A stretch of DNA of 63,421 nucleotides, counting the filler, from Stramenopiles sp. TOSAG23-6 (taxonomy: Eukaryota), in NCBI GenBank assembly GCA_900128565.1. It is 17 parts of 17 records of this genome, joined end to end, with 100 filler letters (N's around TTAATTAATTAA, not from the genome) between each part and the next. Parts side by side here need not be neighbours in the genome. Positions count along the whole stretch, not along the records: positions 3,758 to 7,409 come from LT637420.1; 16 more parts are not named here. One strand, written 5' to 3'. Below, piece after piece: positions 3,656 to 57,254 of this stretch (position 1 is the stretch's first letter; each line of letters starts with the position of its first letter). The notes beneath the pieces were generated by a model. The model was not told where the DNA came from and ran no database searches. It worked only from the letters and a program-made list of their open reading frames with translations. The translations under genes and the position numbers were made by a program.

Positions 3656-3757
3656 AGNNNNNNNNNNNNNNNNNNNNNNNNNNNNNNNNNNNNNNNNNNN
3701 NTTAATTAATTAANNNNNNNNNNNNNNNNNNNNNNNNNNNNNNNNNNNNNNNNNNNN

Positions 3758-3809: not shown

Positions 3810-4539
3810 ATCGCTATCTTCTAAAAACAGTTTTAATTCACTGAGATCTATACCATCCCCATCAGTATCCATTTCTTCAAGTATTTTATACCCATTTCCA
3901 CCATCTTTTTCATATATTTTCATAGCAGTTTTTAATAACAGAATACTATGCATTTTGGAAAAATATTTCAAAAAAAAAATTAAATTTGTTAGGTACAACA
4001 TTTCGTACGAAAAAAAAATCGAATTTGAAAAAAAGCTCTCGAGCATCGAATTCATCTGCAGCTGTATCAGCAATAAGTTTTATTACTAGAATACCACCCG
4101 AAAGCATCATGCATAGGGCAACACGAAGGGTCTTTGGAGTCTCATCTTTCCAAAATTCCATCACCCAAATAAACTTGATAAATTTACCTATTAGAAACAA
4201 TACCCCAGCATAGAAACCAATATCCTTCCATGCTTTTTGTATGAACCAATGCCACATTGCTGCTTTACCTGGACGATGTACATGTTTTGACCATATTAAT
4301 AAATCATTCATTGTAAGAGCACTACCTTCTTCTCGTGGAATTTCATCGTATATTTGCTTTTGTAATGAACGTGAGATACTGACACCACTCTCCGACAATA
4401 ATTGTTCAATCATATTTAACGCCTCAGCTTCACTAATACCGCCCACTTTTCTTTTTAAATCAGTCAAAGCGGGATTTAATGTGTATTGTTTTGATATAGT
4501 GGCAATCGGTGCCACTTTTGCAGACTTAGTATCCGACAT
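3810..4539 (-). CDS. EF-hand-like membrane protein, partial (exons 4539-4045, 3947-3810)
   Basis: Two hydrophobic segments, then EMDTDGDGIDLSELKLFL; exons join in frame across intron 3948-4044. Confidence 0.45.
3948..4044 (-). other. Family intron, putative GC...AT (97 nt)
   Basis: Family core and AAAATGCAT end; GAT|GC donor gives in-frame EFD|SILL; donor is atypical. Confidence 0.5.
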
Positions 4540-4879
4540 GGCGTGAATCGACCCGTCAACGGGTAAATGTGAGTATATAATATTACGTATATTTAGTATC
4601 AAGAAACAGTCAGTTACACTTACTAAAGAATGCAAAGGAAAGTTCTTTGAACCAAAAACCCCCGAAAACAGATAAATTCCCAAATTACCGTAAAAAAACT
4701 CCACGACGACACGAAATCTCAGATTTAATTTTCAATTCAAATGACAAAAAAAAATTAAAAAAATTCATTCCATTTTGTATCATCGATAAATCAAATTGCG
4801 ATGCTTTTCCGACTAATTTACGTCTAATTTACCATAGAGATCATGCACAAATGATCCAACGAACAGAAAACTGAAGATT

Positions 4880-5913
4880 ATGGAGGATAACCAGATATCG
4901 CCAAATAAGCAGGACACTTCAATACATACTTTATATGAGGGGGTTTTACAAAAACTTGGTCAGCGTGGCAAAATGTGGATGAAACGTCAATTTGTGTTGT
5001 TAAGTGACGGTTCTTTTTTTTCTTGCAAAGTTGGCGTAAAACGCTACGATCCTTCAAATGGATCTTCACCAATTAAGTCATTCAATATTTTGAAATGTTT
5101 GATTAACAATAATTCGAATGAATTAAATCAAACGTCAAGCCGAATCGCCACTCGCATATATTCTATCACCATTGTGGCATCAGACGGACGTTGTCTAAAA
5201 CTTGGGTCTCTTGACCCAGCTGTTCTTGAAAAGTGGCTTGAAATATTGCATCTCACAAAGTTTCAGTTACAACAAAAAGAGAAACATAAAAAAATGGAAC
5301 GAATACTGAAGCTTCCAATTGGTCATACTGATGCTCAAGCTTTCCATGTACGTTTTATATAAATTTCTAATTTAATTTTTTTTTCATACGAAATTTCGTA
5401 CCTAACGATTTTTTTTTGTAAATGTTTTTTTTCACAATCCATAGCAAATCATCTGATAGAAAATCAGAGGGTATACATACAACGAACGAAATTTTTCTTT
5501 GGGACGAACAATGGCAAGCATCTCGTGGAACGTCTAGCACATATCCCATTTCAGCATATGATGGTGTACTTGGTTTAGATTCTTCGATTCCTAGTTCTAT
5601 AAGAACTCGCATTTCAAAGTTAAAATTAGAATTTGAAGTACAAAAAAGTTTCGATAAATTCGTATTTCGTGTAGTAGAAAATCTATTTTATAGACCAGGT
5701 AGCGTAAAAATAACACCAGCACCGGAATGGTTTTTGACACGAAATTCACCAATACCTCAGCAAGGTCGTATGTTCTGCGTTGCTGGGATTCCTCTTAATA
5801 TTGCAGTATGTAGTCGACATGCTAAGCAATGTACGTTTTAAAAATTGAATTTCAAATTTATATATTTTTTTCATACGAAATTTCGTACCTAACAATTTTT
5901 TTTTTTTTTTACC

Positions 5914-5944
<31 letters not shown>

Positions 5945-7325
5945 TTTCACGAAACATTAAAGTTAGAGACTCGTGGAATTCGACTTCTTCGCGAAAATTT
6001 ACCTGAAATAGTTCGAGTCCCACTAACGTCACTTGTAAGTTGCTGTGGTATGACTATACTTGCAATGGCACCATTACCGCTGGATAATAATCCTATGCTA
6101 CTTGTTGGTGCTGTTGTGAGCGCACCAACTCCAGATCGAGTATATTTTCATCATGAATTTTTTACCTAATTTTTGTTTCGTACGAAATGTTGTACCTAAC
6201 AAATTTAAGTTTTTTTTTGAATATTTTTCACAATACGAGTGACAATTGTAAAATCAAAATGTATGTTTTATTTTTTTTTTTAAACAAAAAAATCGAATTT
6301 TTTTTCGTACGAAATGTTGTACCTAACAAATTTTAGTTTTTTTTTGAAATATTTTTCCAAACTACATTTCCCTACACTGACTCTGATTTTAAAAAGCATC
6401 TACCGGACACTTTATCTCTTACTTGTAACCCTTATCCAAGGATTCTTGGTATGACGAAGGCCCAACAATTAAAACCAATAATGGGCTCTGATGTAGAATG
6501 GAAACTGGACATAACAGGTACTAATCCAGTTTATACAACAAAGACTGCGAAGTATGGTGATTTATTCATAGAATGGGGAGGCGTAGAAAATCCCTTTTGG
6601 ATTTTTCGATCAGGGGCAATGGTGTATATGTATAATGCGTCGAAGACAATTCAGGATATGATTCATTTTTCCCAAGAGCAAGAACCGACGATGCCAAGTG
6701 ATTGGCTTCCAATAAAGAATAAAATAACAATTTCTGGCGAACTTGGCAAATTAAGTCAATGGGAACCGGAAAAACAATTCAAGTGTTTCATTTTACAAGA
6801 AGAGCGACAAAATTTAACTTTAAAAAAATTTGATTTGGTTCGTTCGGGCTTACCTTTGGTCAATGGAACATATACGAGATATAGACCCGACGACGATGAT
6901 GATAAAGTTATATACGTTCAAGAAACACCTCATAATTTGTACAATATTTTTAAATATGAAGATGATGGAGATTTTAAGGAAGGCATGTGGATTCTTCGAC
7001 ACACTGCTGAGGAAACCGGAAAAGAATATTGGGTTTTTTTCGCTAAAGTAGGAGACAAAGCGGACTGGATAACATCTCAAACGAAATGGTATTCGTATTC
7101 AGATGCTCCATTTGATATACCATCTATGCGCATCGATGGAGTGAAGGTAGCAAAACCAAATTGTTTCATGAATAAAAGTTATTACATTGCACCGGAAATA
7201 CAAGCAAGTTCAGCAATAACAGATGCAACAGAAGGAGAAACTTCATCAGAAATTGTAGGATTTTCTGTCAATGGGCTCAATCATGAATTGAATGGTGAAT
7301 ATGAAAAATCCGCAGAGGAAGATAT
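4880..7325 (+). CDS. PH-domain plus Clu/TIF31-like domain protein, 3' partial (exons 4880-5347, 5443-5830, 5958-6139, 6239-6260, 6368-7325)
   Basis: YEGVLQKLG..WMKRQFVL..EKWLEIL (PH); spliced HAKQLKLETRG..VPLTSLV..ILAMAPLP resembles Clu; all five exons join in frame. Confidence 0.65.
5348..5442 (+). other. Family intron GT...AT (95 nt)
   Basis: TCCAT|GTACGT...CACAATCCAT|AGC; using the AG at 5443-5444 would frameshift into a stop. Confidence 0.85.
5831..5957 (+). other. Family intron GT...AT (127 nt)
   Basis: CAAT|GTACGT...GAAACAT|TA restores the Clu-like frame. Confidence 0.8.
6140..6238 (+). other. Family intron GT...GA (99 nt)
   Basis: TCGA|GTATAT...CACAATACGA|GTG; direct repeat CGAGT; the AG alternative gives an immediate TGA. 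Confidence 0.75.
6261..6367 (+). other. Family intron GT...AT (107 nt)
   Basis: AAAT|GTATGT...ACTACAT|TT joins in frame to ORF 6451. Confidence 0.8.
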
Positions 7326-7409: not shown

Positions 7410-7510
7410 NNNNNNNNNNNNNNNNNNNNNNNNNNNNNNNNNNNNNNNNNNNNTTAATTAATTAANNNNNNNNNNNNNNNNNNNNNNNNNNNNNNNNNNN
7501 NNNNNNNNNT

Positions 7511-9653
7511 TGTGGTGGGATTGATATAGCAAATTGGGAAATAGATGATAAAAAAATTCGTAATGTTCGTGTATGTTTTATATGAATTTCTAATTGATTT
7601 TTTTGTTTTGGTTTTCATACGAAATTTCATACCTAACAAATTTAAGTTTTTTTTTTTGAAATATTTTTTCACAATTCGTGCTGGTGTTGAAAGTGCTTTA
7701 AGTTTTGCCAGTTCATATATTGGAATTGGAGGATTTCGTGATCGAAGAAATCATGGCCAATCTCAAGAATATATTCATAATGAAATTAAATATAGGATTT
7801 TAGTATTAAGACCATTTGTCATTATAAATATGAAACGTTTTGATGAAGATAATGATGAAAATGTTGAAAGACAAAAGAATTCTCTTGATACAAAATATCA
7901 AAAACATCAAAAACATCAAAAACATCAAAAACATCAAAAAACAAATGATAATAATTCTGTAAAAAGACAAAATACACCTATACAATATAAAAATCATAAA
8001 CATCAAAAACATCAAAAATTATCTGCAGTGATCACATCTGTACCAAATTTCTTACTTAATGCTTTAGTCGTTCAGTTACGTGATGGTGAAATTTCTTGTG
8101 AAGTTGAAAGTGAATCATTTATTATTGAACCATCTCGTAAAAGTTTTTTGTACTTACTTTTATTACCTAAAGAGAAAAATGAAAACAAAATGCCAATGTG
8201 GTTAAAAAATAATTTTTCTAGACAATTTCGTTGTGTCGAATTCGATTGGACAAATCAAAAAAACCCTAACTCTAAAACAGTAAACCCTAACCCTACAAAT
8301 TCTGAACACTCTACTGTTATTGCAACAGACAATATATCAATACAACAAACTGTACCTACATTGAATATCCATACATCTAACCCTAACCCTAATGATTCTA
8401 TACAGGATGATAAAAAACATAAAAATACTACAGAAAATGAATTTATCAATTTAAATTTTGATCAGTATAAATATATACTAGGTATTGGTGGTATTGGTGG
8501 AACCCTAGACACTCTAGAACAAAATGATACAAAAAATAGTACAAAAATTTCAAAAATGTCTAAAAATATTAAAAAAATGTGGCACAGTACAAGTTTCAAA
8601 GCATTAATAAGTCGACAACGAAGACGGAACCCTAACCCTAACAACTCTTCTTCTACTAAATATTCTACAAAAAATACAAATTTTGATGTGTCAAATGTTA
8701 ATCAATTTCAAAAAACACAAAATTCTCACAATCCTAAAAACCCTAAAAACCCTAAAAACCCTAAAAGAAAAACACAAATTGTATCGCGTTCAAATAGTTT
8801 GAGATTTCGTGATTTCCCAAGACAATTATCAAATACAAATTGTTTGAATTACAACCAAGCAGATAAAAAATCTGTTATTGAAATTTGGAAAATGAACAAT
8901 GTAATTAATGCAGATACATATTATTCATTATATGGATTAGATAATTCATGTTCTTGGGCTGCCGTTGCTCTTGTTCCAGTCATCTCAGAGTATACTATCG
9001 ACAACACGAATTCTAAAAAAAATAGCAACACGAATTCTAAAAAAGATGGACATTCATTTATTCATTTTCCTTATACTGAATGTTGTACTACAATGACAAA
9101 TGAAAAGAATCAAAGTTCTATAATCATTCAAAAAGATACATGTACGTTGATTTTAAAATGTATTTTTAAAATGTATTTTTAAAATGTATTTTTAAAATGT
9201 ATTTTTGTTTATTTTTGTGTCTAATTTGTATTTTTGAAATGCATTATTCAATAATTGTAGTATATATTCCATTTCATAAGTAAATTCTATACCTAACAAA
9301 ATATGTTTTTTTAAAATGACATATTTTTCCAAAATACATGTACACCTATCCATCGAAATTCAACAAAACTTCTAAAGAAAATATCTGCTGTCAAATCTAT
9401 TATGAAACTTTTGGATCATCACCAGAGAAAAAATAGTCACAAACCTGCTCGTGGAGAACAACGTGTGAAAAAAGTGATTTCTATACAGCGAATTAATACA
9501 AGAGACAGTTTTGTATCAACAAGTGAAAATGAATTAATTGAAGACACTAACCCTAACCCTATTGATTCAATTGGAAAATCAATAAATATAAACGACACTC
9601 CTACGTGGGCAAAAACGTTACGACATCGTTGGAACGAACCTGAAAACCTCTAA
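7511..9653 (+). CDS. Hypothetical low-complexity protein, 5' partial (exons 7511-7570, 7680-9141, 9340-9653)
   Basis: Exons join in frame; KHQ, NPK and NPNP repeats; no domain recognised. Confidence 0.55.
7571..7679 (+). other. Family intron GT...GT (109 nt)
   Basis: TTCGT|GTATGT...CACAATTCGT|GCT; direct repeat TTCGTG; in-frame RNVR|AGVE. Confidence 0.75.
9142..9339 (+). other. Family intron GT...AT (198 nt, with internal TTTTAAAATGTAT repeats)
   Basis: ATACAT|GTAC at both junctions; joins in frame to ORF 9402. Confidence 0.8.
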
Positions 9654-11160: not shown

Positions 11161-11260
11161 NNNNNNNNNNNNNNNNNNNNNNNNNNNNNNNNNNNNNNNN
11201 NNNNTTAATTAATTAANNNNNNNNNNNNNNNNNNNNNNNNNNNNNNNNNNNNNNNNNNNN

Positions 11261-11350: not shown

Positions 11351-13096
11351 ATTGAGGATTCATCCTCCTGTTGTGTAGAGACAGAAGAAGGAAGATTCAT
11401 CTCTGAATTGATCATACATTTCATACCAAATTGTGGTACTAATGATGAATTTATTTGTTTCATTTTTTCACACCAAAACGAATGAATTTTGGAAAAGTAT
11501 TTCAAAAAAAAATTTGTTAGGTAAAAAATTTCGTACGAAAAAAAATTGGAATTTGAAAAAAAATAAAACATACATACCATTCCATCGGAAGTAAATACCA
11601 TACTGTACCTACTTTCGTAAAGCTTGATTTATTCATTATACTTTGGATGGGTTTAAAATATTGTAAGCGACATATATTGTGAAAAAATATTTCAAAAATT
11701 TGATTTTTTTTGTTAGGTACGAAATTTCGTACAAAAAAATAAATAAATTTGAAATTCATGATGAAAACGTACATAACGACGACAGAAAACTACTAGACCA
11801 ATCATTCATAACTCTACGAATATCATTAATACCTGGCCACTGCTCTAGTGTCAATACTAAATGCATGATCCCTTGATTTACTACATCAGTTCCATGAATC
11901 ATATGCAATTTCTTGATTAATTTTTGATAATTATTTGTATTTTGATTTTCTTTATTATGTATTCCCTTCAAAACATTAGCAATAGGAATCATAAGTCGAC
12001 CTCTTTCCCTAGCTACAGTTGCACAGAATTTCCTTGCATTGTCTTTGCTATGCAAGAAATCAAAAATTATTACCTCAAAAAGATGTTCGAATATAGACCA
12101 ATATTCTTTGTTTGGATCTATTGTGACACATTTTCGAAGCATACTCGCAAACGTAAGAGCTCCTGAAGTTGCAGACGCTGATGCTGATCCAATTTGTTTT
12201 GGGTTAGGGTTTTGCTCTTTTTTAGAGACATTTTCATCTAACAATACAAAAGAATCCTCTGCTATCACTGGAGAGATCAAACGTCCAGCCCAACACCAAG
12301 CCCAGTCTATTGCAATATAAGAAAGTTGTACACTACACTCATAGTTCACTGTATCAGAGGGTTCTAGTTTTAGACAGAGAGGGAACTCTGAGGTTATTTT
12401 TGCAATTACTTCTTTTGATTTCCATTTATGGTAAGGAAATTTCGGAGATTTTCGACACAAAGAGAAACCTGTGGATATATCATCTATTAAACGATGTCGC
12501 ACAAATGACCAGAGTATGGGTGCAACAGAAAGACATTCCATGTTGAAATTATTAATAGTTGGTGCAGGCTTTGTGCCTATACCAATCTTCTCAGTTTGAT
12601 TCTCTGAGGTGTTTGATAGTTTATTCACTATCGAAGATTTTAGACGAAGGATTAGTAACAAGCATTCCAAACGAAGAGGAACATCCTCTTCTATTGTACG
12701 ACTACCCCGACATATGGATTTAGGCACCAGAGTACGCAACTGATCAGTTCCGAAATGTATGAAGAACTCAGTAGGGGAAATTGTTGCAGATTTCTGGAGC
12801 ACTCGCTTACCGAGCATATGTGCATATGGTCGAACACCCTGATTACCATCAGCATTACGAGTAGGTGATGGCCTTTTACCCGAGGTTACATTGCTGGTAT
12901 CACTATCATCAGCAGCGTCATCATATTCACAACTACTCTTACTTTCATTTTCAGTACACCAAGCAACTGCCGAACTAAGGAGCACCGGTTCAATTAGTTG
13001 TGACGACGTGCAACGACTCAGAAAAAGGTCAACAAGATGTTCTACAACATTCGGCTCATGCGAAGAGCGCAACAATCCTTCAAAAATTTTGTCCAT
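11351..13096 (-). CDS. Protein with DUSP-like motif, 3' partial (exons 13096-11773, 11671-11574, 11481-11351)
   Basis: Spliced GTVWYLLPMEWY|SFWCEK resembles DUSP (WYLV..W...W); exons in frame. Confidence 0.5.
11482..11573 (-). other. Family intron GT...AT (92 nt)
   Basis: GTAT|GTATGT...CCAAAATTCAT|TCG; in frame. Confidence 0.8.
11672..11772 (-). other. Family intron GT...AT (101 nt)
   Basis: TTAT|GTACGT...CACAATATAT|GT; direct repeat TATGT; in frame. Confidence 0.8.
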
Positions 13097-13426
13097 TATA
13101 AGAGCAATTCAATTGTTTTTTTTCTGTACTTTCCAAACCATTTTTTTTTCAAGACCGGACTAGTTAGTGTATATGTATGACACAAGTAACAACAAAGAAA
13201 CTTCCTCGGCGATAACTGACACAAAATAATGACATCCCAGAATCACAAGAACAAACACGAAATCTAAAAAACAAAATTGAAACAAAATTTTTGAGAAACG
13301 AATTTGCTCTCTTCCTCCTGTCTCTCGCTCTCTTTGTCCTCTCTTTGCCTTGCTCAAAAGAGCTCCTCTTTGAGAATAGAATAGCAAAAATAGGAGTGGC
13401 ACATTAGCTTTAGGTACTATACTACA

Positions 13427-13577
13427 GTATGTGGGCGATAAAGGTATTGAGCAATTTTTTGCATGTGCCACTTTTGAGCTTTCATTTCATTTGTCAGTGT
13501 TTTTGTAGTTTTATGTTCTTAATTTCGTTTTTTTGTAAGTTTTTAACAAACGCTAAAAAATTCTTGTTTTTCGGCAG
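13427..13577 (+). other. Candidate canonical GT-AG intron (probably 5' UTR)
   Basis: GTATGT donor, pyrimidine tract and CAG end; lacks the family core. Confidence 0.45.
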
Positions 13578-13614
13578 GGTTAAAAACCAGAGCCAAAAAC
13601 ATGAAGCCCAGAAA

Positions 13615-14698
13615 ATGAAAACACGTATAAATCAGTTGATCCTCGAAAATGAAGTGAAAAGTAAAAAGATTAAACAACTGTTAACCATTGAGTCCAGCTT
13701 CAAAACAGCAAAGGTGACGAATACCACCAAAATAGAAATACTTCGTGGAAAAATGCGAAGACTTCTTCGTGAACAAGAAGCAAAGAATTCTCTTCTAAAG
13801 GTATTAATCGCTCGATATGGAAAAAAACTAAAGCGATGTCGGACGTCACTGAAAAAAAAATCAGAAGGGAAAAAAAGGAAGTCTAGTTGCAAAAAAAACC
13901 CATCTAAAGATAAAAGTAAATGCAATATTGTCGTAGTCGGTGAAGTTGAAATAAATTTGCGCGATAAAATAAAAGAGCTTTTGAATGAGAAATCTAAAAG
14001 ACTCGAGCGTCTCAATGAGTTAGAGAAGAAATTACTCGTAGCAAAAAAAACTGACGCATCAACCATCTCTACGACTCACTCTCCACAGCGTGAAACAAAT
14101 TCAAAAAAAGAGCAATGGAAAAAATTACAAAAACATCCAATATTTGGTCGGTATTTTAGAATGCTTAAAATGGGAATTCCTTTGAATTCGGTAAAACAAA
14201 AAATGATTCTTGACGGATTGAATAAAGAAATGATTCCCATGTTGGATGATCCTGAGTCATGTACGTTTTATTTTTTTTTCAAATTCGAAGTTTTTTTTTC
14301 GTACGAAATTTTGTACCTAACGATTTTTTTAATTAAAAAAAAAAATATTTTTCCAAAATACATGGTTTGGGCCTTCTGGAACGATCTCACCTCTTCATTA
14401 TGATCCATATCATAATCTATTATGCCAAGTTGTTGGTTACAAATATATTCGTTTAATTGATAGTCGATACACACACAAATTATATAGAAGAGATCCCCCA
14501 CGGCATAATAATTCTAAAATTGATCTTGATAAATATGAAATTTCAAATTTTCCAGATTTTGAAAATACACCAATGACACATTGCCTTCTTGGACCTGGTG
14601 AAATGCTATATATACCACGTCACTGTTGGCATTATGTGAGATCTGTCACTGGTTCATTTAGTGTCAGTTATTGGTGGGGAGGAGAAAAGGATTTATAA
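13615..14698 (+). CDS. Coiled-coil plus CCDC53/formin-type motif joined to the C-terminal part of a JMJD5/KDM8-like JmjC domain (exons 13615-14260, 14364-14698; possibly chimeric)
   Basis: RYFRMLKMGIP..VKQKM..DGL motif; second exon WFGPSGTISPLHYDPYHNLLCQVVGYKYIRL..LGPGEMLYIP..WHYVRS. Confidence 0.6.
14261..14363 (+). other. Family intron GT...AT (103 nt)
   Basis: TCAT|GTACGT...AAAATACAT|GG; T+GG rebuilds the conserved Trp of WFGP. Confidence 0.8.
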
Positions 14699-15008
14699 AG
14701 AAAATAACATTGAGTATCTTAATTATTTTTTTTAATATTTTGGATAATTACTACGAAAATAATTATAATTTCTATAAAGAGTGTAATAAAATATAAATAT
14801 TTTATTTTTTGTAAGGTATTTTTTTATATTCAGAAATTAAAAATATGAGACAAATATTTCAATTTGTTGTCTTCTTCAAACACTCTTTTTTATGTGAACT
14901 CTTCCAATNNNNNNNNNNNNNNNNNNNNNNNNNNNNNNNNNNNNNNNNNNNNTTAATTAATTAANNNNNNNNNNNNNNNNNNNNNNNNNNNNNNNNNNNN
15001 NNNNNNNN

Positions 15009-15055
<47 letters not shown>

Positions 15056-15080
15056 ACTGGTTCGATCCCGGTTCGCGGCG
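15009..15080 (+). tRNA. tRNA-Phe(GAA), first base lost in the gap
   Basis: TAGCTCAGTTGGGAGAGC D arm, TCAGA-CTGAAGA-TCTGA anticodon arm, GGTTCGATCC T loop. Confidence 0.95.
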
Positions 15081-15485: not shown

Positions 15486-16199
15486 TCAATTTCTATTTTG
15501 TTCTGCTCTAACCCAATTGTAAAATTCTGGGTCTTCTTCATGACTAGTCTTTATATCTATCAAATTCTGAATATTGTCTTTACCATTTTGTTGTTGATTT
15601 GAATATTCATTTAACAGTTTGGAAAATTTATCTGATTTAATAACACACATTTTATCTGATTGGGGTTTTATACGGCCAAGGAAACATGTATTTTGGAAAA
15701 ATATTTGAAAAAAATCTTTAAGTACAAAATTTCGTACGAAAAAAAAATCGAATTTGAAAAAAAAATAAAACATACAGCATTTAGCAAAAGACGTTGCAAA
15801 AGTTTTTGACTCACGCAAAAATTCATGTTTCATGTAGAAATATTTCGAGCAATATGCTTTGATTGAAGTTTTAATTTCATATTCTTGTCCATATTTTAGT
15901 TCTCTGATATATCTACTTTGTATACTAGCTACTACAGCTGAACTAGGTCCAATAGATGTCGTGTCTCTTCGATTCTTTAGAATTAGTTCAAAGGCAGAGA
16001 TTTTTACAAGGTAGTCCCAACGTGCTTGTTCAGCTGCTTCTAAATATCGTGCATTATTCATGTGACCAAACATGTCTATATCAAAAAAACGCACTTTGAA
16101 TAAACGTGTAGTGCTCTCAAGTGGTGATATTTTTCGCTGCCAAAGGGCACGCAGTGTAGTCATAACAGTGCGACCATAATATGAGAAAATATATCCCAT
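15486..16199 (-). CDS. Hot-dog fold thioesterase, THEM6/4HBT-like (exons 16199-15776, 15685-15486)
   Basis: DIDMFGHMNNARYL motif; RYIRELKYGQ. Confidence 0.85.
   Translation of the reverse strand: MGYIFSYYGRTVMTTLRALWQRKISPLESTTRLFKVRFFDIDMFGHMNNARYLEAAEQARWDYLVKISAFELILKNRRDTTSIGPSSAVVASIQSRYIRELKYGQEYEIKTSIKAYCSKYFYMKHEFLRESKTFATSFAKCCMFYFFFKFDFFFVRNFVLKDFFQIFFQNTCFLGRIKPQSDKMCVIKSDKFSKLLNEYSNQQQNGKDNIQNLIDIKTSHEEDPEFYNWVRAEQNRN
15686..15775 (-). other. Family intron GT...AT (90 nt, in frame and stop-free)
   Basis: TGCT|GTATGT...AAAATACAT|GT; moving both boundaries 2 nt upstream creates TGA, so this copy fixes the register. Confidence 0.8.
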
Positions 16200-16575
16200 T
16201 TGAAACAAAAATACAATATATTTTACCAGCAAATTATGCAATTATCTCGTGTTGAAAGTCATGGATTGAAAAAGAAATGGTGATTCTATTCGAGGTGGCG
16301 TGGACAAGTGAGTAAAGCTACTACGGTACTCGTGACTAGTGAGTACCAGTATAGGACCTACTAGGTAGCAAAAGAATCGCAAAAATCACAAAAACCCTAA
16401 CCCTAATTAATTAGTAGAGATCGCGCATGCAATGACATTGTCAAGTCAAGTCAAGTGAAGTCAAGTCATCTGATCTGCATCGCATGACCCCGGCCACATT
16501 GTCCACTCCACACACCACGTTCTCTTCTCTTATCATTGCGTCTAGAACAATTTCAATTTCTGGTAGGTCTTTACA

Positions 16576-17223
16576 ATGTCAGAGTCTAAAACTGCATCCC
16601 CCATGGCAAAACTTTTGTTAATGAAGCAATTAAAAGAGTTGAGTTCAGATCCTCCTGAGGGTGTTGAAGTTTGGTTAGAGGATGATGCTGACTTGTTCAA
16701 GTGGAGTTGCAGGTATGTTACAATGTTTAAGTTCACCGTGTCTCCCGTTTTTTCGTCAACATATTTTTCATACTCTAAAACATTATATATATATATATAT
16801 TCTTACTTGTATACAATATTAACATGTATATTAAACACGTACAGTATTATTGGTCCACCTGGTACACCTTATGAGGGTGGAATATTTACTTGTTTGCTTG
16901 AATTCCCGCCAGATTTCCCAAATATGCCTCCAAAAATGATTTTTCAGACCAACATTTGGCACCCAAATATCTACAGTGACGGAAGAGTATGTATTAGCAT
17001 ATTACACCCACCAGGAACAGACTCGCATAATCCTGAGGAGCTTGCAGAAGAACGCTGGCGTCCAATTCTTGGTGTAGAAGCTATCCTAGTATCTGTAATA
17101 TCTATGCTTGCTGACCCAAATGATAATTCGCCAGCCAACATAGATGCAGCTGTTCAGTGGAGAAAGGATCGTGCTGGATATAATAAAGAAGTCAAAAAGT
17201 GCGTTGAAAAATCATTATGTTGA
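16576..17223 (+). CDS. Ubiquitin-conjugating enzyme E2, Ubc7/UBE2G/Cdc34-like (exons 16576-16712, 16845-17223)
   Basis: GPPGTPYEGG, HPNIYSDGRVCISILH, acidic loop insertion, SPANIDAA. Confidence 0.95.
   Translation: MSESKTASPMAKLLLMKQLKELSSDPPEGVEVWLEDDADLFKWSCRYVTMFKFTVSPVFSSTYFSYSKTLYIYIYSYLYTILTCILNTYSIIGPPGTPYEGGIFTCLLEFPPDFPNMPPKMIFQTNIWHPNIYSDGRVCISILHPPGTDSHNPEELAEERWRPILGVEAILVSVISMLADPNDNSPANIDAAVQWRKDRAGYNKEVKKCVEKSLC
16713..16844 (+). other. Canonical GT-AG intron (132 nt), not of the family
   Basis: AG|GTATGT...TACAG|T; removal gives WSCSIIGPP as expected for an E2. Confidence 0.9.
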
Positions 17224-17533: not shown

Positions 17534-18652
17534 TCAGCGTTTAACAAGTCGACCATACTTTTCTTTCCCCTTTTTACCTCGGCGTTGTATTCTTACTTCA
17601 TCAGGTGCTACTTCTTCTTCTTCGCTATCAGAGTACTTCACAGCAATGTCTCCATCATCACAAATCTCAATAACAGTTGCACGTATTGTGAAAAAATATT
17701 TCAAAAAAAAATCGTTAGGTACGAAATTCCGTATGAAAAAATTAAGTTAGAAATTCATATAAAACATACATGCACGCATCTCTGCTTCTTGTCTTTTGTG
17801 ATGAGAGTTTCTCATATTTTTTAAACTAACTTTCATTAAAGTCTGGTGCACAGCAGTTCTATTTGCTTCATTTTCTCTCACATTTGCCAATTTTAATTCC
17901 ATATTTTTCTCCTCCAACTTAATCATATAGCATTCCCACTTATTCCACACACGCCATTTCTCTGTACGAATCCTTCTACTTACATAAAAAAACATAACCA
18001 AAAGAGCCCCTCGTAATTCTAATTGGGATAGTGTCAGACCCATAGCCTCTGCTAACTTTGTAGCTTTTTGTAGCTGTTGTTGGTGTTTCTCCTTCATTGT
18101 ACCCACTCTAAGTTGAAAAAGACTCTCTTGCTCTGCTAAAATTCGAGATGTGTTTTCCTTATATTTTTGTTCTTGGAATTCCAACTGTTTTAAATATTCT
18201 TTTTTATTGTTCATAAAACCACGTGCATTCTTCTCTTTTTGAAGCTGAAAACGTTCTTTCCATATTGCAGATTTCATTGTGTCATATTTACCGAGAATAT
18301 TTTCAGATTGAAAGTCACTAACGACACTATTATGAGGATTATGAGGTAACGCAGTAGGATTTTGTTGAGATGCAGTATGATTTTGTTGAGATGCAGTATG
18401 AATTTGATGAGATGCAGTGTGTTTTTGTTGAGATGCAGTGTGCTTTTGATAAGATGCAGTGTGCATTTGATGTAATTTCATGTGCCTTTTTTGATGAAAG
18501 GGAATGGGTTTGGGTTTTAATGACTTGCCTTCTCCTTCCGAATCTTTCTCTCTCCTCCAACCACGTGCACCATAATCTTTCCAATGCGACGTGTGTGAAG
18601 GTATAGGTTCCGGTGGAGGTGAAGGTATTGGCGATGTTGATGCTGGTGACAT
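17534..18652 (-). CDS. Coiled-coil hypothetical protein with 21-nt repeats (exons 18652-17774, 17680-17534)
   Basis: Long ORF with HTASQQK repeats; last exon ATVIEICDDGDIAVKYSD is Tudor-like. Confidence 0.5.
17681..17773 (-). other. Family intron GC...GT (93 nt)
   Basis: CGT|GCATGTATGT...CACAATACGT|GCA; 6-nt direct repeat CGTGCA; the GC donor, not the GT 4 nt downstream, keeps the frame. Confidence 0.6.
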
Positions 18653-18945: not shown

Positions 18946-19017
18946 TTCTTGTTAGTTTAATGGATAGAATTAGCGACTCCGGATCGCTGGATCCGGGTTC
19001 GACTCCCGGGCAGGACT
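18946..19017 (+). tRNA. tRNA-Arg(CCG)
   Basis: AGCGA-CTCCGGA-TCGCT anticodon arm; CCGGG-TTCGACT-CCCGG T arm; T:C mismatch at the first acceptor pair. Confidence 0.85.
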
Positions 19018-19838: not shown

Positions 19839-20035
19839 TTCTTTGTTACATATTCTATACAAATATATAGATAAATACATGTGTGTAATTTACAAAAAAT
19901 ATTAAAAATTGAAATTTAATTTAAATAAGTTTACAACTAGGCTTTTTTTTCAATTTCGAATTTATTTTCGTACGGAATTTTGTACCTAACAAATTTAAGT
20001 TTTTTTTTTTTTTAGGACTCTGAGATTTGTAAAAG

Positions 20036-48629: not shown

Positions 48630-50810
48630 AATGTCGGTGATAATGGACGGGAAAGTAATTCTTCTCTGAACTTTAACTCTAAATTATGAGAACTTTCAAT
48701 AGTTCTGTTTGTATTTTTTATAAACTCTTCCTGTAATTTTAGAAATACATCATCCTCATTTTTATTTGAATCGTCGACGCTTTCAATTGGTAACAACGGT
48801 AAACTTTTTCGAGCAGATTTCCAAGAGTTAATGATATCATTGTATATATCATCCAAATTCATTTTTTCAAGAACTGTCTTGCGGGTAATTTTTGATGTTA
48901 ATCCTAACGACACCTCTTCAAACTTTTCGAATAGTTTTACATCAGGTTTTGTTAGTTTTCCTGCGATATGAAGTTCAGGGAAATTATTCATATTAAGTTC
49001 TACAAATTGGGATATTGTGAATGGTGGAATAAATTTTTTATCATATCCTTTATCCCATTCGTAATCTTTACCGCTAATTAAATGAGACCCAGGAAATTGA
49101 ACATGAGGGTAGTGTTGAATTTCATTATACCACCATGAGTATGTCATCATCGGCTGATGTAGGATTGTCAAGTCTGTTCTAAATCCTTCACAAAGTGTCA
49201 AGTAGCGGAGAACTGTCCATTGTAAGTCGTAAGTAGTTATTAGAAGGGAACCCTGAGGAATATGCGAAACAAGAGCTTTTCCATATTCTTCAATATAATG
49301 AGCATTGCTCATATCTTGCTCTGGGTACCAGTAGTCTGTTTGGTATTTAATCATGTATGCACCGACTCCAGCAATGATGAAGAGATAGAAGTACCAAATT
49401 TTGATTTTCAAAGATTCCTTCGATATCCATGAAGATAAGCTAAATTTGCACAGAATATATTCAATTCTACAAACGTCAAAAAGTACATGAAGCCAAGCTG
49501 AAGCTCCGACCCCAAATGTAATGAAGATAATAACATTTGGTTGCATCCAAAATCTCATATGAACGCCAAACAACAACCCTTGGGACAGTGGGATATTAGA
49601 TAATGTATGGAAAATTATCAAGTAAAATGCCCAGGTGAATAATAGAATTTGTCCAATGGAATTTTGTGCTTTTGATAATTGTTTTTTTTGGGTGCTTTTA
49701 GATTCCCCTTTACGACCCCTGTCACGTAGTAATGTTTTTATTGAAGTGATTCTTTTTGAAACTACTTTTTTCCTATTAATATATGGACTATGAGGGATTT
49801 CTCCCATACCAAACTGCCACATAACCTTGAAACCTACAAAGATAAAAGGAATACACAATGGTGAAGGCAACTCTCGTGTAAATAGATCAGAGAAATAATT
49901 AAATAACCTCTCCATTAAACCTGCGACCTTTTCATTTGCACGATTTCCAGAATATAACTGAAGCGTTCCATAATCAGCACGGCGGAAATGATGGAAAAAA
50001 CCACACGTATTGAGAAAAAATATTTTTTTTGTAAAATTTGTTAGGTACGAAATTTCGTAGGAAAAAAAATAAATTCGAAATTCATAATGAAAACGTACTT
50101 ATTGTTCCCGTATTTCCCCAACTAGATGGATTAGGAAAATATTTTTCAGCGACTATTAGATATAAGTATGGAGTTAAACCAAGAAGATAGTAACCAGCTA
50201 GTCGCCAAAACAAAGCTTTAGTAAGTACCCGTTGATGAAACAAAATCCAAAGAAACCAGGAAATTAAAGGTATCTGAAACAGTACTGTTGTATGTTGGTT
50301 ACACATTGCCAAACCACAACAAAATGAACCAAAAATAGCAACATTCGGATCATTTTTCTTTGAAAATAAACATGTAAGATAGACAATCAAGGCTGCAAAA
50401 AAATTATTCATTGCAAACACTTCACTTGATATTGCGTACAACCAGACAAGTGGGGATATTGAATAGAGAATACCAGCCAGGGCGGCGACGACAATATTAC
50501 CTCGTCTTGTATCACGGGTTAATAAATCAACACTTAGGAATACAAAAACACCAGCTAATGAGGCAAAACAACATGACATCATATTTGATCGCCACGCTGG
50601 AGTACCACCTAACCATTCCATTCGCTTTGTAGCTATGTTGGATAACAATATAAATAGTGGATATCCTGGAGGATGAGCAACACCAAGGCTACATGACTCT
50701 GCAACTAATTCACCACTATCACCTCCAGCAACAGTCGGATACACTGTCTGTATGTATATTGACATTGGTATTGCAAACACAAGTGCAGAAACTGTTAGTA
50801 AAAGCATCAT
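48630..50810 (-). CDS. TMEM260: TMEM260/DUF2723 protein O-mannosyltransferase-like, 3' partial (exons 50810-50099, 50004-48630)
   Basis: GGDSGEL..GVAHPPGYPLF, EVFAMNN, CNQHT, spliced WGNTGTI|SGFFHHFRRADYGTLQL, RFWMQ. Confidence 0.92.
50005..50098 (-). other. Family intron GT...GT (94 nt)
   Basis: ATAA|GTACGT...CTCAATACGT|GT; restores the WG(x6)GF spacing of TMEM260. Confidence 0.85.
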
Positions 50811-52356: not shown

Positions 52357-52514
52357 ACACCAACCATCCAAGGTCGGTGCTCATCATTTGATACAGCTCT
52401 CCCTGAGAGTCTATCTCGGAGACATAGATAGCTTGTAATCACAATAGCAGGACCTAACCCGCTAAGCACTTTTTGCATGACCTCTTCTTCATATTTTGTT
52501 TGTTTTGTGGCCAT
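52357..52514 (-). CDS. 5' fragment of a second copy of the CPW-ankyrin gene
   Basis: EEEVMQKVLSGLGPAIVITSYLCL..PWMVG is nearly identical to the start of 54452-55303. Confidence 0.75.
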
Positions 52515-54227: not shown

Positions 54228-54311
54228 GCAGTTGTACCAAAGCCTGGTTAATGGGTCAGACTTGAAATCTGATGGGCTATGCCCTCGCAGGTTCGAATCC
54301 TGTCAACTGCG
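54228..54311 (+). tRNA. tRNA-Ser(TGA)
   Basis: GCAGTTG/CAACTGC acceptor, TCAGA-CTTGAAA-TCTGA anticodon arm, long variable arm, GGTTCGAATCC. Confidence 0.95.
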
Positions 54312-54451: not shown

Positions 54452-55303
54452 CTACAAATGTACCTTCATCCATTTAATCACTTCTATGTGGCCCCCTTCA
54501 ACTGTCATTTTATATATATATTTTTTCCATGGACAAGGTGGATTTTGACTTCTTACCCATTTCAATACCTCTAGATGACCATTTTTTGCTGCCCAACCAC
54601 ACGTGTATTCATTCCATGGACAAGGTGGATTTTGACTTCTTAACCATTTCAATACTTCCAACTGACCATTTCCAGCTGCCNCTTCACATGTATTTTCATT
54701 CCATCGGCATGGAAGATTTTGACTTCTTATCCATTTCAATACCTCTAGATGACCATTTTCAGCTGCTCTATTACACATGAAACGATCCAATGGACACGGT
54801 GGATTTTGACTTCTTAACCACTTTAATACTTTTAATTGACCATATTTAGCTGCCTGTGAACACGTATCTTCATCCCACGGACAAGGTGGATTTTGATTTC
54901 TTACCCATTTCAATATTTCCAAGTGACCATACGCAGCCGAAATTGAACTCGTGTGTACATCCCATGGGCAAGGTGGATTTTGATTTCTCATCCATTGTAA
55001 CACTTCCAATTTACCATGAGCGGCAACTACCTCACACGTTTCTTCATCCCAAGGACAAGGTGGCTTTTGGCTTCTTAGCCATTTAAAAAATTGCACGTCA
55101 GCGTGCTTCACTGTTGCAGTACACGTCACACCACCCCAATCAACACCAACCATCCAAGGTCGTTGCTCATCATTTGATACAGCTCTCCCTGAGAGTCTAT
55201 CTTTCAAGCAAAGATAGCTGGTGATTACAATAGCAGGACCTAACCCGCTAAGCACTTTTTGCATGACCTCTTCTTCATGTTTCGTGCGTTTGCGTGCATT
55301 CAT
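54452..55303 (-). CDS. Ankyrin-like repeat protein (27-aa AA..GHLEVLKW.RSQNPPCPW repeats)
   Basis: About seven to eight tandem 81-bp repeats. Confidence 0.9.
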   Translation of the reverse strand: MNARKRTKHEEEVMQKVLSGLGPAIVITSYLCLKDRLSGRAVSNDEQRPWMVGVDWGGVTCTATVKHADVQFFKWLRSQKPPCPWDEETCEVVAAHGKLEVLQWMRNQNPPCPWDVHTSSISAAYGHLEILKWVRNQNPPCPWDEDTCSQAAKYGQLKVLKWLRSQNPPCPLDRFMCNRAAENGHLEVLKWIRSQNLPCRWNENTCEXAAGNGQLEVLKWLRSQNPPCPWNEYTCGWAAKNGHLEVLKWVRSQNPPCPWKKYIYKMTVEGGHIEVIKWMKVHL

Positions 55304-56925: not shown

Positions 56926-57254
56926 TANTAAAAATATCTATTCAAAAGTGATCAAACATACACACTATTGATTCTATAGTAGACACTTGATAGTATATAG
57001 GATCAATTGTAGTCCTAACAATCTAAATCTACGCAAAAGATTATCCTTGAATCTACGTTTATTTATTTTATATTATTACTTTTTCGAGGAGGAGCGCCAA
57101 ATTTAATTGCGAATGATCGATGTCAAATTAAGTTTTAAAAATTCCGTACCAAATTTCGTACCTAACGAATTTGTGATGGAATTTCTATCAGCAAAAAGTT
57201 CCAAATTTCCTAACCCTAGAACGAACGCGAATTCTAATATATAACTTATCAAAT

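Follow-up and report, generated by a model that had tools for sequence, protein, structure and literature searches.

Repeated introns with non-AG 3′ ends in Stramenopiles sp. TOSAG23-6, a candidate family of introner-type mobile elements

The focal gene and its repeated introns

The window analysed here, a stretch of 63,421 bases from the Stramenopiles sp. TOSAG23-6 assembly GCA_900128565.1, carries about 40 copies of one short intron family whose 3′ ends are not AG. It consists of about 17 contigs of about 3.7 kb, longest first, representing multiple loci and not a single one, and the contigs are joined by linkers of 44 N, TTAATTAATTAA and a further 44 N (3658–3757, 7410–7509, 11161–11260 and onward). 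The contigs have the GC content of an AT-rich eukaryote (∼0.21–0.38), and their long open reading frames (ORFs) stay open with the standard code and specify ordinary eukaryotic proteins, including a ubiquitin-conjugating enzyme, BRO1, SNF2, a CaMK-like kinase, eIF2A, a WH1/PBD protein and a TMEM260-like protein; a prolyl-tRNA synthetase of bacterial type is also encoded. Copies of the intron family are hosted by the BRO1, SNF2 and TMEM260-like genes, by an HMG-box gene and by unnamed genes.

The focal gene, on the plus strand, is interrupted by four complete copies. Putative exon 1, taken from the first ATG of its ORF, spans 4877–5347 and is followed by copy 5398 (5348–5442), which reads GTACGT...TACCTAAC...CACAAT+CCAT and whose upstream exon also ends in CCAT. 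Exon 2 (5443–5830) leads to a copy at 5831–5957 (GTACGT...CACGAA+ACAT) whose CTAAC and 3′ motif are separated by a long T-run/A-run hairpin, and exon 3 (5958–6139) to copy 6192 (6140–6238; GTATAT...CACAAT+ACGA), which has the direct repeat CGAGT at both boundaries. A micro-exon of 22 nt (6239–6260) separates this copy from copy 6319 (6261–6367; GTATGT...CCAAACT+ACAT), and exon 5 (6368–7325) runs up to a further copy, which is interrupted by the contig end (7326–7409). When the four segments 5348–5442, 5831–5957, 6140–6238 and 6261–6367 are removed, the gene reads through 673 codons with no stop, and each of its 3′ cuts tolerates shifts in multiples of three only. No homologue near full length was found for exon 5, with only two marginal matches among 1.84 billion representatives, and because the gene has no detectable homologue its junctions are placed by reading frame.

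From 5′ to 3′, the family comprises GTAYGTTTT, an A/T-rich stretch often containing AAATTCGAATTT, a palindromic (C)GTACGAAATTTYGTAC immediately 5′ of CTAAC, a variable T-run, the 3′ terminal motif GAAATATTTTT(C/T)CA(A/C)AAT, whose last part is referred to here as the box, and four final nucleotides. The branch-site motif is TACCTAAC, and the palindrome before it corresponds in RNA to a small hairpin of 8 bp with G-U pairs allowed. Two subfamilies are distinguished by their endings, ...CCAAAAT and ...TTCACAAT. Allowing at most one mismatch, GTACCTAAC occurs 53 times in the window against 6.3 expected, the largest count among 100 shuffles being 13. Copies were first located by the branch-site motif, and a second search with the 3′ motif added one copy, which has TACTTAA; TACCTAA is present in all 21 curated copies, which were found via TACCTAA itself. 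Complete copies are 89–200 nt long (median 108), and the alignment of the 21 has a mean column identity of 51%, length-variable runs included. GTAYGT opens 17 of the 21 copies, the other starts being GTATAT, GTTTGT (twice), ATATGT and ATACGT.

Measured in 22 copies, the branch A of CTAAC lies 34–65 nt (median 43) from the last intron base, a wider range than the 35–50 nt given by an earlier reading of this DNA from sequence without database searches (the sequence-only reading), and a ruler measured from the branch point alone is ruled out by this variation. In long copies the extra length between CTAAC and the 3′ motif consists of opposed T-run/A-run hairpins (5893–5950; 41510–41560 (−); 26040–26110 (−); z down to −5.5). 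Folded in this way, the branch point and the 3′ end would effectively lie closer together, which is possibly consistent with a constraint on their effective distance.

Some copies depart from this layout. Two are truncated at the 5′ side (3946–4079 (−) and 19920–20010 (+)), and both start GC|TTTTTTTCAA(A)TTTCG without GTATGTTTTA. The first of these, copy 3996, lies between two ORF segments with no upstream GT available; either the gene around it is broken or a 5′ cut of unknown kind is used. Copy 9289 (9142–9339, +), 198 nt long, contains four tandem 13-nt units (TAAAATGTATTTT) at 9150–9215. When metagenomes were scanned with the core motif, five loci were returned, one of which is a true copy (L005, on an unrelated metagenome contig).

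Placement of the intron ends

The 5′ cut was taken as the G of GTAYGT and the 3′ cut as the end of the 22-nt 3′ consensus alignment, four bases behind the box (box+4). Both were set before frames were examined, and the junctions are inferred from reading frames, not from RNA. With these cuts the upstream and downstream ORFs fall in one frame in 16 of the 18 singly testable copies among the 21 curated, while shifts of ±1 or ±2 fail; at one chance in three for each copy, 16 or more of 18 would be expected with a probability of ∼2e-6 (hand calculation). The copies left out of the 18 are 6192 and 6319, which flank the 22-nt micro-exon and were judged jointly, and copy 26078 (26023–26134, −), whose upstream exon is missing at a contig end. 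The micro-exon is stop-free with both of its cuts at box+4, other paired offsets being possible. Among the copies in frame are those at 22840–22938, 23516–23606, 33375–33497 (upstream exon ending in CAG) and 41496–41628 (with an A-run/T-run insertion), all on the minus strand, and one in the SNF2 gene at 36228–36337 (+; GTTTGT...ACAT). The box+4 cut also fits copy 9289 and the metagenome copy L005. The claim of the sequence-only reading that the junction stays 4 nt after the box is thus borne out for 16 of 18 copies, and the two that depart from it are weighed below. An intron of 90 nt in a thioesterase gene (15686–15775) is open throughout and hence offers no frame test, and no Pfam match was obtained for the exon downstream of it.

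At the frame-preserving cut none of the 21 copies ends in AG, and the ends are non-AG in every register. The three AGs that the sequence-only reading had described as lying beside a junction and unusable are indeed so: that at 5443–5444 is out of frame (offset +2, with 42 stops downstream), that at 6238–6239 gives an offset of +1 with an immediate TGA and 23 stops, and that at 36796–36797 gives TAA. An AG lying 9–11 nt after CTAAC is passed over in 6 of 22 copies and is in frame in only one of the six. Use of this AG, with ∼33 nt retained, was also considered and is contradicted by the alignment of the BRO1 gene with its relative P0001.

That gene provides the best-validated junction of the family, around the copy at 40790–40904 (+). 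Its upstream exon aligns to solved BRO1 domains through its last residue (Pfam positions 1–256), and two relatives, P0001 (from EukProt, 59% identity) and P0002 (39%), align without a gap across junction 40789|40905 (..AAAH|YWQ.. against ..AAAHFWQ..). The alignment scores are highest at the proposed cut for both P0001 (925, as against 914 at −3 and 911 at +3) and P0002 (511, as against 500 and 496). It follows from the gap-free alignments that 115 nt are removed from the BRO1 gene. Since CAT stands at both boundaries, the registers GT..AT, TG..CA, AT..AC and CA..TA are equivalent, and GT..AG is never among them; the AG 9 nt after CTAAC in this intron is left unused. The short downstream exon by itself gives PDB and Pfam matches that are too weak, and a local Pfam match (E 0.15) that implies five extra residues at the junction is contradicted by the P0001 alignment.

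In the SNF2 gene, a composite intron of three tandem or nested copies (36515–36802, +; 288 nt, with three TACCTAAC sites) ends ...TATAGAAAAT| and skips the AG five bases upstream, the one that would make TAA. It splits ..LKDYQ from CS-GVNW.., the G being position 5 of the Pfam domain SNF2-rel_dom. This spacing agrees with the two residues that usually separate the conserved Q and G in SNF2 proteins. Within this intron, GTATTTC, resembling a 5′ splice site, stands directly after ...CCAAAATACGT at 36706. An ordinary intron served as control: in the ubiquitin-conjugating enzyme gene (16713–16844, +; GTATGT...ACAG), exon 1 extends to position 32 of UQ_con, codon 33 is split and exon 2 continues from position 34. 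From this exact colinearity it follows that the organism uses AG in ordinary introns.

Boundary repeats, a proposed origin and its rivals

The last four bases are mostly ACAT. The other endings are CCAT in copy 5398, TCAT in 11524 (11482–11573, −), ATAT in 11720 (11672–11772, −) and 26078, ACGA in 6192, TCGT in 7629 (7571–7679, +), ACGT in 17722 (17681–17769, −) and in 50048 in the TMEM260-like gene (50005–50098, −), ACTT in 36033 in the SNF2 gene (35977–36088, +), ATTT in 41804 (41753–41874, −) and GCAT in 3996. Every ending listed by the sequence-only reading is therefore present, but the four bases, which it noted as varying, are not random and follow the consensus ACAT: −1 is T in 20 of the 21 copies, −3 is C in 18 and −2 is A in 15. 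The upstream exon ends in AT in 15/21 (10% in the window) and in CAT in 9/21 (2% in the window), and the downstream exon begins with G in 11/21, the window background being 16%.

A consensus of this kind raises the possibility that the acceptor is read by its sequence, Y-A-U (C-A-U) being accepted beside Y-A-G, for example because the small subunit of U2AF is altered or because G(+1) and U(−1) pair at the termini. The constant spacing behind the box would then be only a by-product of the unchanging element sequence, and CGT, CGA and TTT ends would be poorly spliced or decaying. In addition to the strength of the terminal consensus, this is favoured by diverged U2AF paralogues, which a Fritillaria study describes as recognising non-AG ends (PMC13326754). 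Nevertheless, we regard such an acceptor as unlikely, as the TAT of GAAATAT, ∼14 nt upstream, is unused in nearly every copy although copies 11720 and 26078 end in ATAT|, copies ending CGA|, CTT| or TTT| still keep long frames open, and the ordinary introns of the window use AG.

The four bases resemble the end of the upstream exon. Comparison of exon positions −4 to −1 with the same positions of the copy's own intron gives 56 matches of 84. Exons and introns paired anew give 47.8, and a count of at least 56 arises in 36 of 20000 such re-pairings. The main site of the signal is −2, which matches in 17 of 21 copies against 12.6 re-paired (66/20000), and of the 13 positions at which an intron end deviates from ACAT, 7 show that deviating base in the exon as well. 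The direct repeats at the boundaries measure 2–10 nt, and the long ones differ in sequence: CCAT/TCCAT (5398), TTCGTG (7629), CGAGT (6192), TATGT (11720), ACATA (25482; 25434–25536, −, with the 5′ end ATACGT), CGTGCA (17722) and the 10-nt ATACATGTAC over both boundaries of copy 9289. They are most simply seen as an insertion signature, either a target-site duplication or a core shared by the joined element ends (…ACAT|GTAY…) and a similar target. Reverse splicing was considered as their source and rejected, as it cannot make an intron end copy an exon end. What is new relative to the sequence-only reading is thus that the four bases have a consensus and match the upstream exon end beyond chance, which points to introner-type mobile introns.

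On balance, we lean towards reading the family as introners: young, high-copy mobile elements of ∼90–130 nt that act as introns and whose non-AG 3′ end is set by position behind the 3′ terminal motif. The first base of the element would begin a strong U2-type 5′ splice site (GTAYGT), and the element would further supply the branch site (TACCTAAC with its preceding hairpin), the T-rich tract and the 3′ terminal motif (...CA(A/C)AAT-AC). Insertion would leave a short direct repeat, the bases behind the 3′ end of the element copying the end of the upstream exon, mostly ..(C)AT, and the excised segment, element plus one copy of the repeat, would restore the original frame. Because only this segment restores the gene, excision would have to end behind the repeat, and the copying of the upstream exon end would explain why the four bases vary. 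As the repeat would be target-derived and usually ...CAT, the intron would end in AT (or GT, GA, TT) and not in AG, so that recognition of an AG would not define where the exons are ligated. The ligation site would lie directly behind the 3′ terminal motif, at an effective distance from the branch point that is still permitted, and Y-A-T would be preferred there. We infer that removal is spliceosomal, that the copies arose by transposition and that the 3′ site is chosen by position; more tentatively, and with a probability well below even, a major-type spliceosome may ligate without AG at a site set by the 3′ motif of the element or by the identity of intron end and 5′-exon end.

If true, a transposon of this kind would be spliced out scarlessly wherever it inserted and could spread through coding sequence at almost no cost, giving a simple reason for the large-scale invasion of genes by such elements. 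Few signals in eukaryotic gene expression are as constant as the 3′ AG, and known introners must find or bring one; the choice of 3′ site could, on this reading, pass to position or to a non-AG consensus inside an intron that otherwise looks normal. In practical terms, gene prediction that allows only GT-AG introns will break up most of the organism's genes, and read aligners will label part of the family AT-AC, which may mislead inferences about the minor spliceosome in marine protists and their viruses.

Several observations weigh against the introner reading. The observation itself is real and beyond chance and is partly confirmed: its junctions are placed from frames, from the colinearity of the BRO1 homologues and from one SNF2 motif, and none is RNA-based. 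The RNA data consist of contigs from four seawater metatranscriptome runs matched to the window, in which parts of the focal contig recur. No exon-exon junction was found among the joints listed, in which repeat copies are linked and not exons. A third, more distant protein, P0003 (32% identity), is non-discriminating and aligns best at +9 (318 against 314). The repeat signal is strong at −2 and −1 only, −3 and −4 not exceeding re-pairing; 2 bp, 4 bp or a variable length are all candidates for the length of the repeat, and a shared recombination core could account for it instead of a staggered-cut duplication. Between the divergence of the copies from their consensus and the identity of their repeats there is no correlation (rho −0.22, p 0.34, n 21), and no inverted terminal repeat beyond ∼6–9 imperfect bases was found in the copies, no autonomous partner having been sought. 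The conservation of the box is uninformative about function, because everything in a young repeat is conserved. Copies 27887 (27820–27938, +; ATATGT replacing GTATGT) and 17722 (GTATGT...CACAAT+ACGT) are in frame only at box+2, after ...AAUAC, or at box+5. Lastly, junction 14313 (copy at 14261–14363, +), though in frame, joins unrelated protein parts within 13414–14695 (+): a C-terminus like that of the WASH-complex protein CCDC53 and the C-terminal half of a JMJD5/KDM8-like JmjC domain (residues 139–246 of the PDB chain), the first half of which is nowhere on the contig; the upstream exon contains no JmjC part. The simplest account is that the contig was joined wrongly at the repeat, the alternative being an odd fusion, and single junctions are accordingly not to be over-trusted, nor are all contig joins across copies safe.

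Mis-joining at repeats is one form of a broader objection, that the copies are not spliced at all and reflect DNA elimination in an expressed nucleus, dead genes or contigs joined wrongly. The apparent chimera at 14313 speaks for it, as does the frequency with which contigs break at copies; at least eight contig ends sit within the family, the pattern expected because assemblers break at high-copy repeats. A search with the ORF upstream of copy 17722 likewise gave only an unspliced read-through form, the Logan-derived protein P0007. However, in-frame restoration in 16 of 18 copies cannot arise from random joins or dead genes, homologues are colinear across the junction, and elements eliminated from DNA would have no use for conserved splice signals. 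Element sequence is also abundant in the RNA-library contigs, which cover copies massively and exons thinly with short contigs, although DNA carry-over is possible. We therefore consider the absence of splicing extremely improbable. One RNA-library contig of 237 nt (X4) matches the window from 6366 onward with 5 differences in 110 and carries before this point GC-richer, unrelated sequence absent from the window; it would fit the junction at 6365–6367 in a paralogue or relative, as a hint only.

The two copies that depart from box+4 bring in a different placement of the ends, in which the GT register is moved two bases leftward, so that the intron truly runs from AT to AC and its ends are joined through the A(+1)-C(−1) pairing known from AT-AC introns; the duplicated AT would give the 5′ terminus and the ...AC of the element the 3′ terminus. 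Nine of the 21 copies read exactly so in the −2 register, as do both copies lacking the +1 G (27887 and 25482), copy 27887 being in frame as AT...AC with its cut at box+2, and copy 17722 keeps its frame when cut behind ...AC. Aligners of spliced reads would label such junctions AT-AC, and, as a lead only, one family of a mirusvirus order with WCTAAC branch sites is reported to be AT-AC-enriched (PMC12768974). Against this, 12 of the 21 copies do not read AT...AC in any register (5398 gives AT..CC, 7629 GT..TC and 6192 GA..AC), and copies 33430, 41567 and 50048 cannot be shifted. The 5′ consensus CAT|GTAYGTTTT moreover fits a U1/U6-type site in the GT register and not a U12-type one, and CTAAC, at 34–65 nt from the 3′ end, lacks the proximity known from U12-type introns. 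AT...AC termini are thus distinctly unlikely for the family, less probable even than an acceptor read by sequence.

Direct repeats at the boundaries together with non-canonical ends could also indicate that removal is non-spliceosomal and directed by base pairing between the two ends of the intron, the mechanism proposed for euglenid nonconventional introns and for Amoebophrya introner elements. Pairing is possible between CAUGUAU and AUACAUG, and in several single-copy folds the two ends are joined; the elements of Amoebophrya have direct repeats of 3–5 nt together with inverted repeats (PMC7789003). In the window family, however, the aligned copies give a consensus structure of 0 pairs in RNAalifold, single-copy folds have a mean z of −1.1 with the ends paired in some copies only, and the only complementary termini seen by eye in the alignment are GTAT(G)TTT and AAA(A)TAC. 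Pairing fails with GA or other repeats that are not self-complementary (6192, 5398), and both the 5′ splice site and the branch site of the element are of textbook form. Removal through end pairing is consequently very improbable.

Returning to the introner reading, the proposal of the sequence-only reading that the 3′ site is set by position while adjacent AGs are ignored stands as regards the non-AG boundary and the skipped AGs, but the site is fixed to the 3′ terminal motif in most copies only. The ruler that it suggested, a factor or an RNA that binds the box and measures 4 nt, fits and is a fair description, albeit an unproven one. The box is no more conserved than the rest of the young repeat or the terminal ...CAT, two copies need box+2, and in the composite intron the box is heavily substituted while the cut still lies at the usual distance from GAAATAT.

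Other features of the window and relation to known systems

A second repeat, GTACCAAATTYCGTACCTAA(N)GAATTT, occurs near or inside some copies and between genes (22640–22760, 41290–41380 (−), 57140–57220 and 16385–16410), as well as in the 3′ part of L005, and telomere-like runs of two to three units (TTAGGG/CCCTAA) are found in the same stretches. Two contigs share a near-identical stretch of ∼130 nt or more around GGACCTAACCCGCTAAGC (52357–52500 and 55130–55300, +), which is either a duplicated gene segment or two alleles assembled separately. Three tRNA genes were identified with Rfam (15008–15080, 18946–19017 and 54228–54311, +), the first of which starts exactly at a contig start.

Introners, high-copy mobile elements that create introns, are known from dinoflagellates (Symbiodinium, Polarella), Aureococcus and Micromonas (10.1101/2020.10.14.339549; PMC12130899). 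They resemble the window family in that one splice site lies in the element, the other comes from the duplication and the intron equals the element plus one duplication. Their duplication-derived 3′ site contains AG (e.g. NAGGH), and their 5′ sites are GT, GC or GA. The window family differs in that the element would bring both the 5′ site and the branch site, the putatively duplication-derived end is ...AT, GT, GA or TT, and clear terminal inverted repeats were not found in it. According to a survey of introners, families with mainly unfamiliar splice sites were discarded unless supported by transcripts, so a family like this one could have been dropped (PMC12130899). Our literature searches (by motif, and for introners together with non-AG or AT-AC terms) returned no description of the family; the supplementary tables of the introner surveys lay outside their scope and might list it.

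The Syndiniales genus Amoebophrya offers a further parallel, being a marine protist with repeated introns, boundary direct repeats of 3–5 nt and non-GT-AG ends; because of these repeats and ends its intron borders are ambiguous (PMC7789003). Its elements carry inverted repeats of 8–20 nt folding into a terminal hairpin, and their terminal dinucleotides are inconsistent at both ends, whereas the window family keeps a 5′ splice site of canonical type together with a branch site and has no conserved terminal helix. The tunicate Fritillaria borealis resembles the window family in having introns without a 3′ AG, there genome-wide, which are handled by a U2-type spliceosome and recognised by diverged U2AF paralogues; it shows that such a machinery can be adapted to non-AG ends (PMC13326754). 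Most non-canonical introns show AG-A(N) in the genome whose canonical introns make up the smallest share on record (PMC7789003). The window family, with its GT 5′ end, does not follow that pattern. We take the genome of that statement to be the Fritillaria one.

U12-type introns tolerate non-AG 3′ ends, and how far the 3′ site lies from an upstream element largely decides its choice; the termini of U12-type/AT-AC introns include GT-AT and AT-AC. They have a 5′ site of the RTATCCTT type and a branch site within ∼10–20 nt of the 3′ end, features that the window family lacks, with GTAYGTTTT at its 5′ end and CTAAC 34–65 nt from its 3′ end. Euglenid introns are similar to the family in their variable non-canonical borders, and an intermediate type mixes canonical and non-canonical features (PMC4770533). 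The nonconventional euglenid introns depend on a stable structure that joins their ends, and no such structure is conserved in the window family.

Intron circles made by the spliceosome have been proposed to promote intron transposition (PMC10996645), and the preferred target in the window does resemble the end-to-end junction of the element, as that idea would have it; the copied exon bases argue for duplication at the DNA level over intron circles. The AT-AC introns of the mirusvirus order considered above, whose branch sites are WCTAAC (PMC12768974), could in turn be of the kind found in the window, and might then point to the host lineage.

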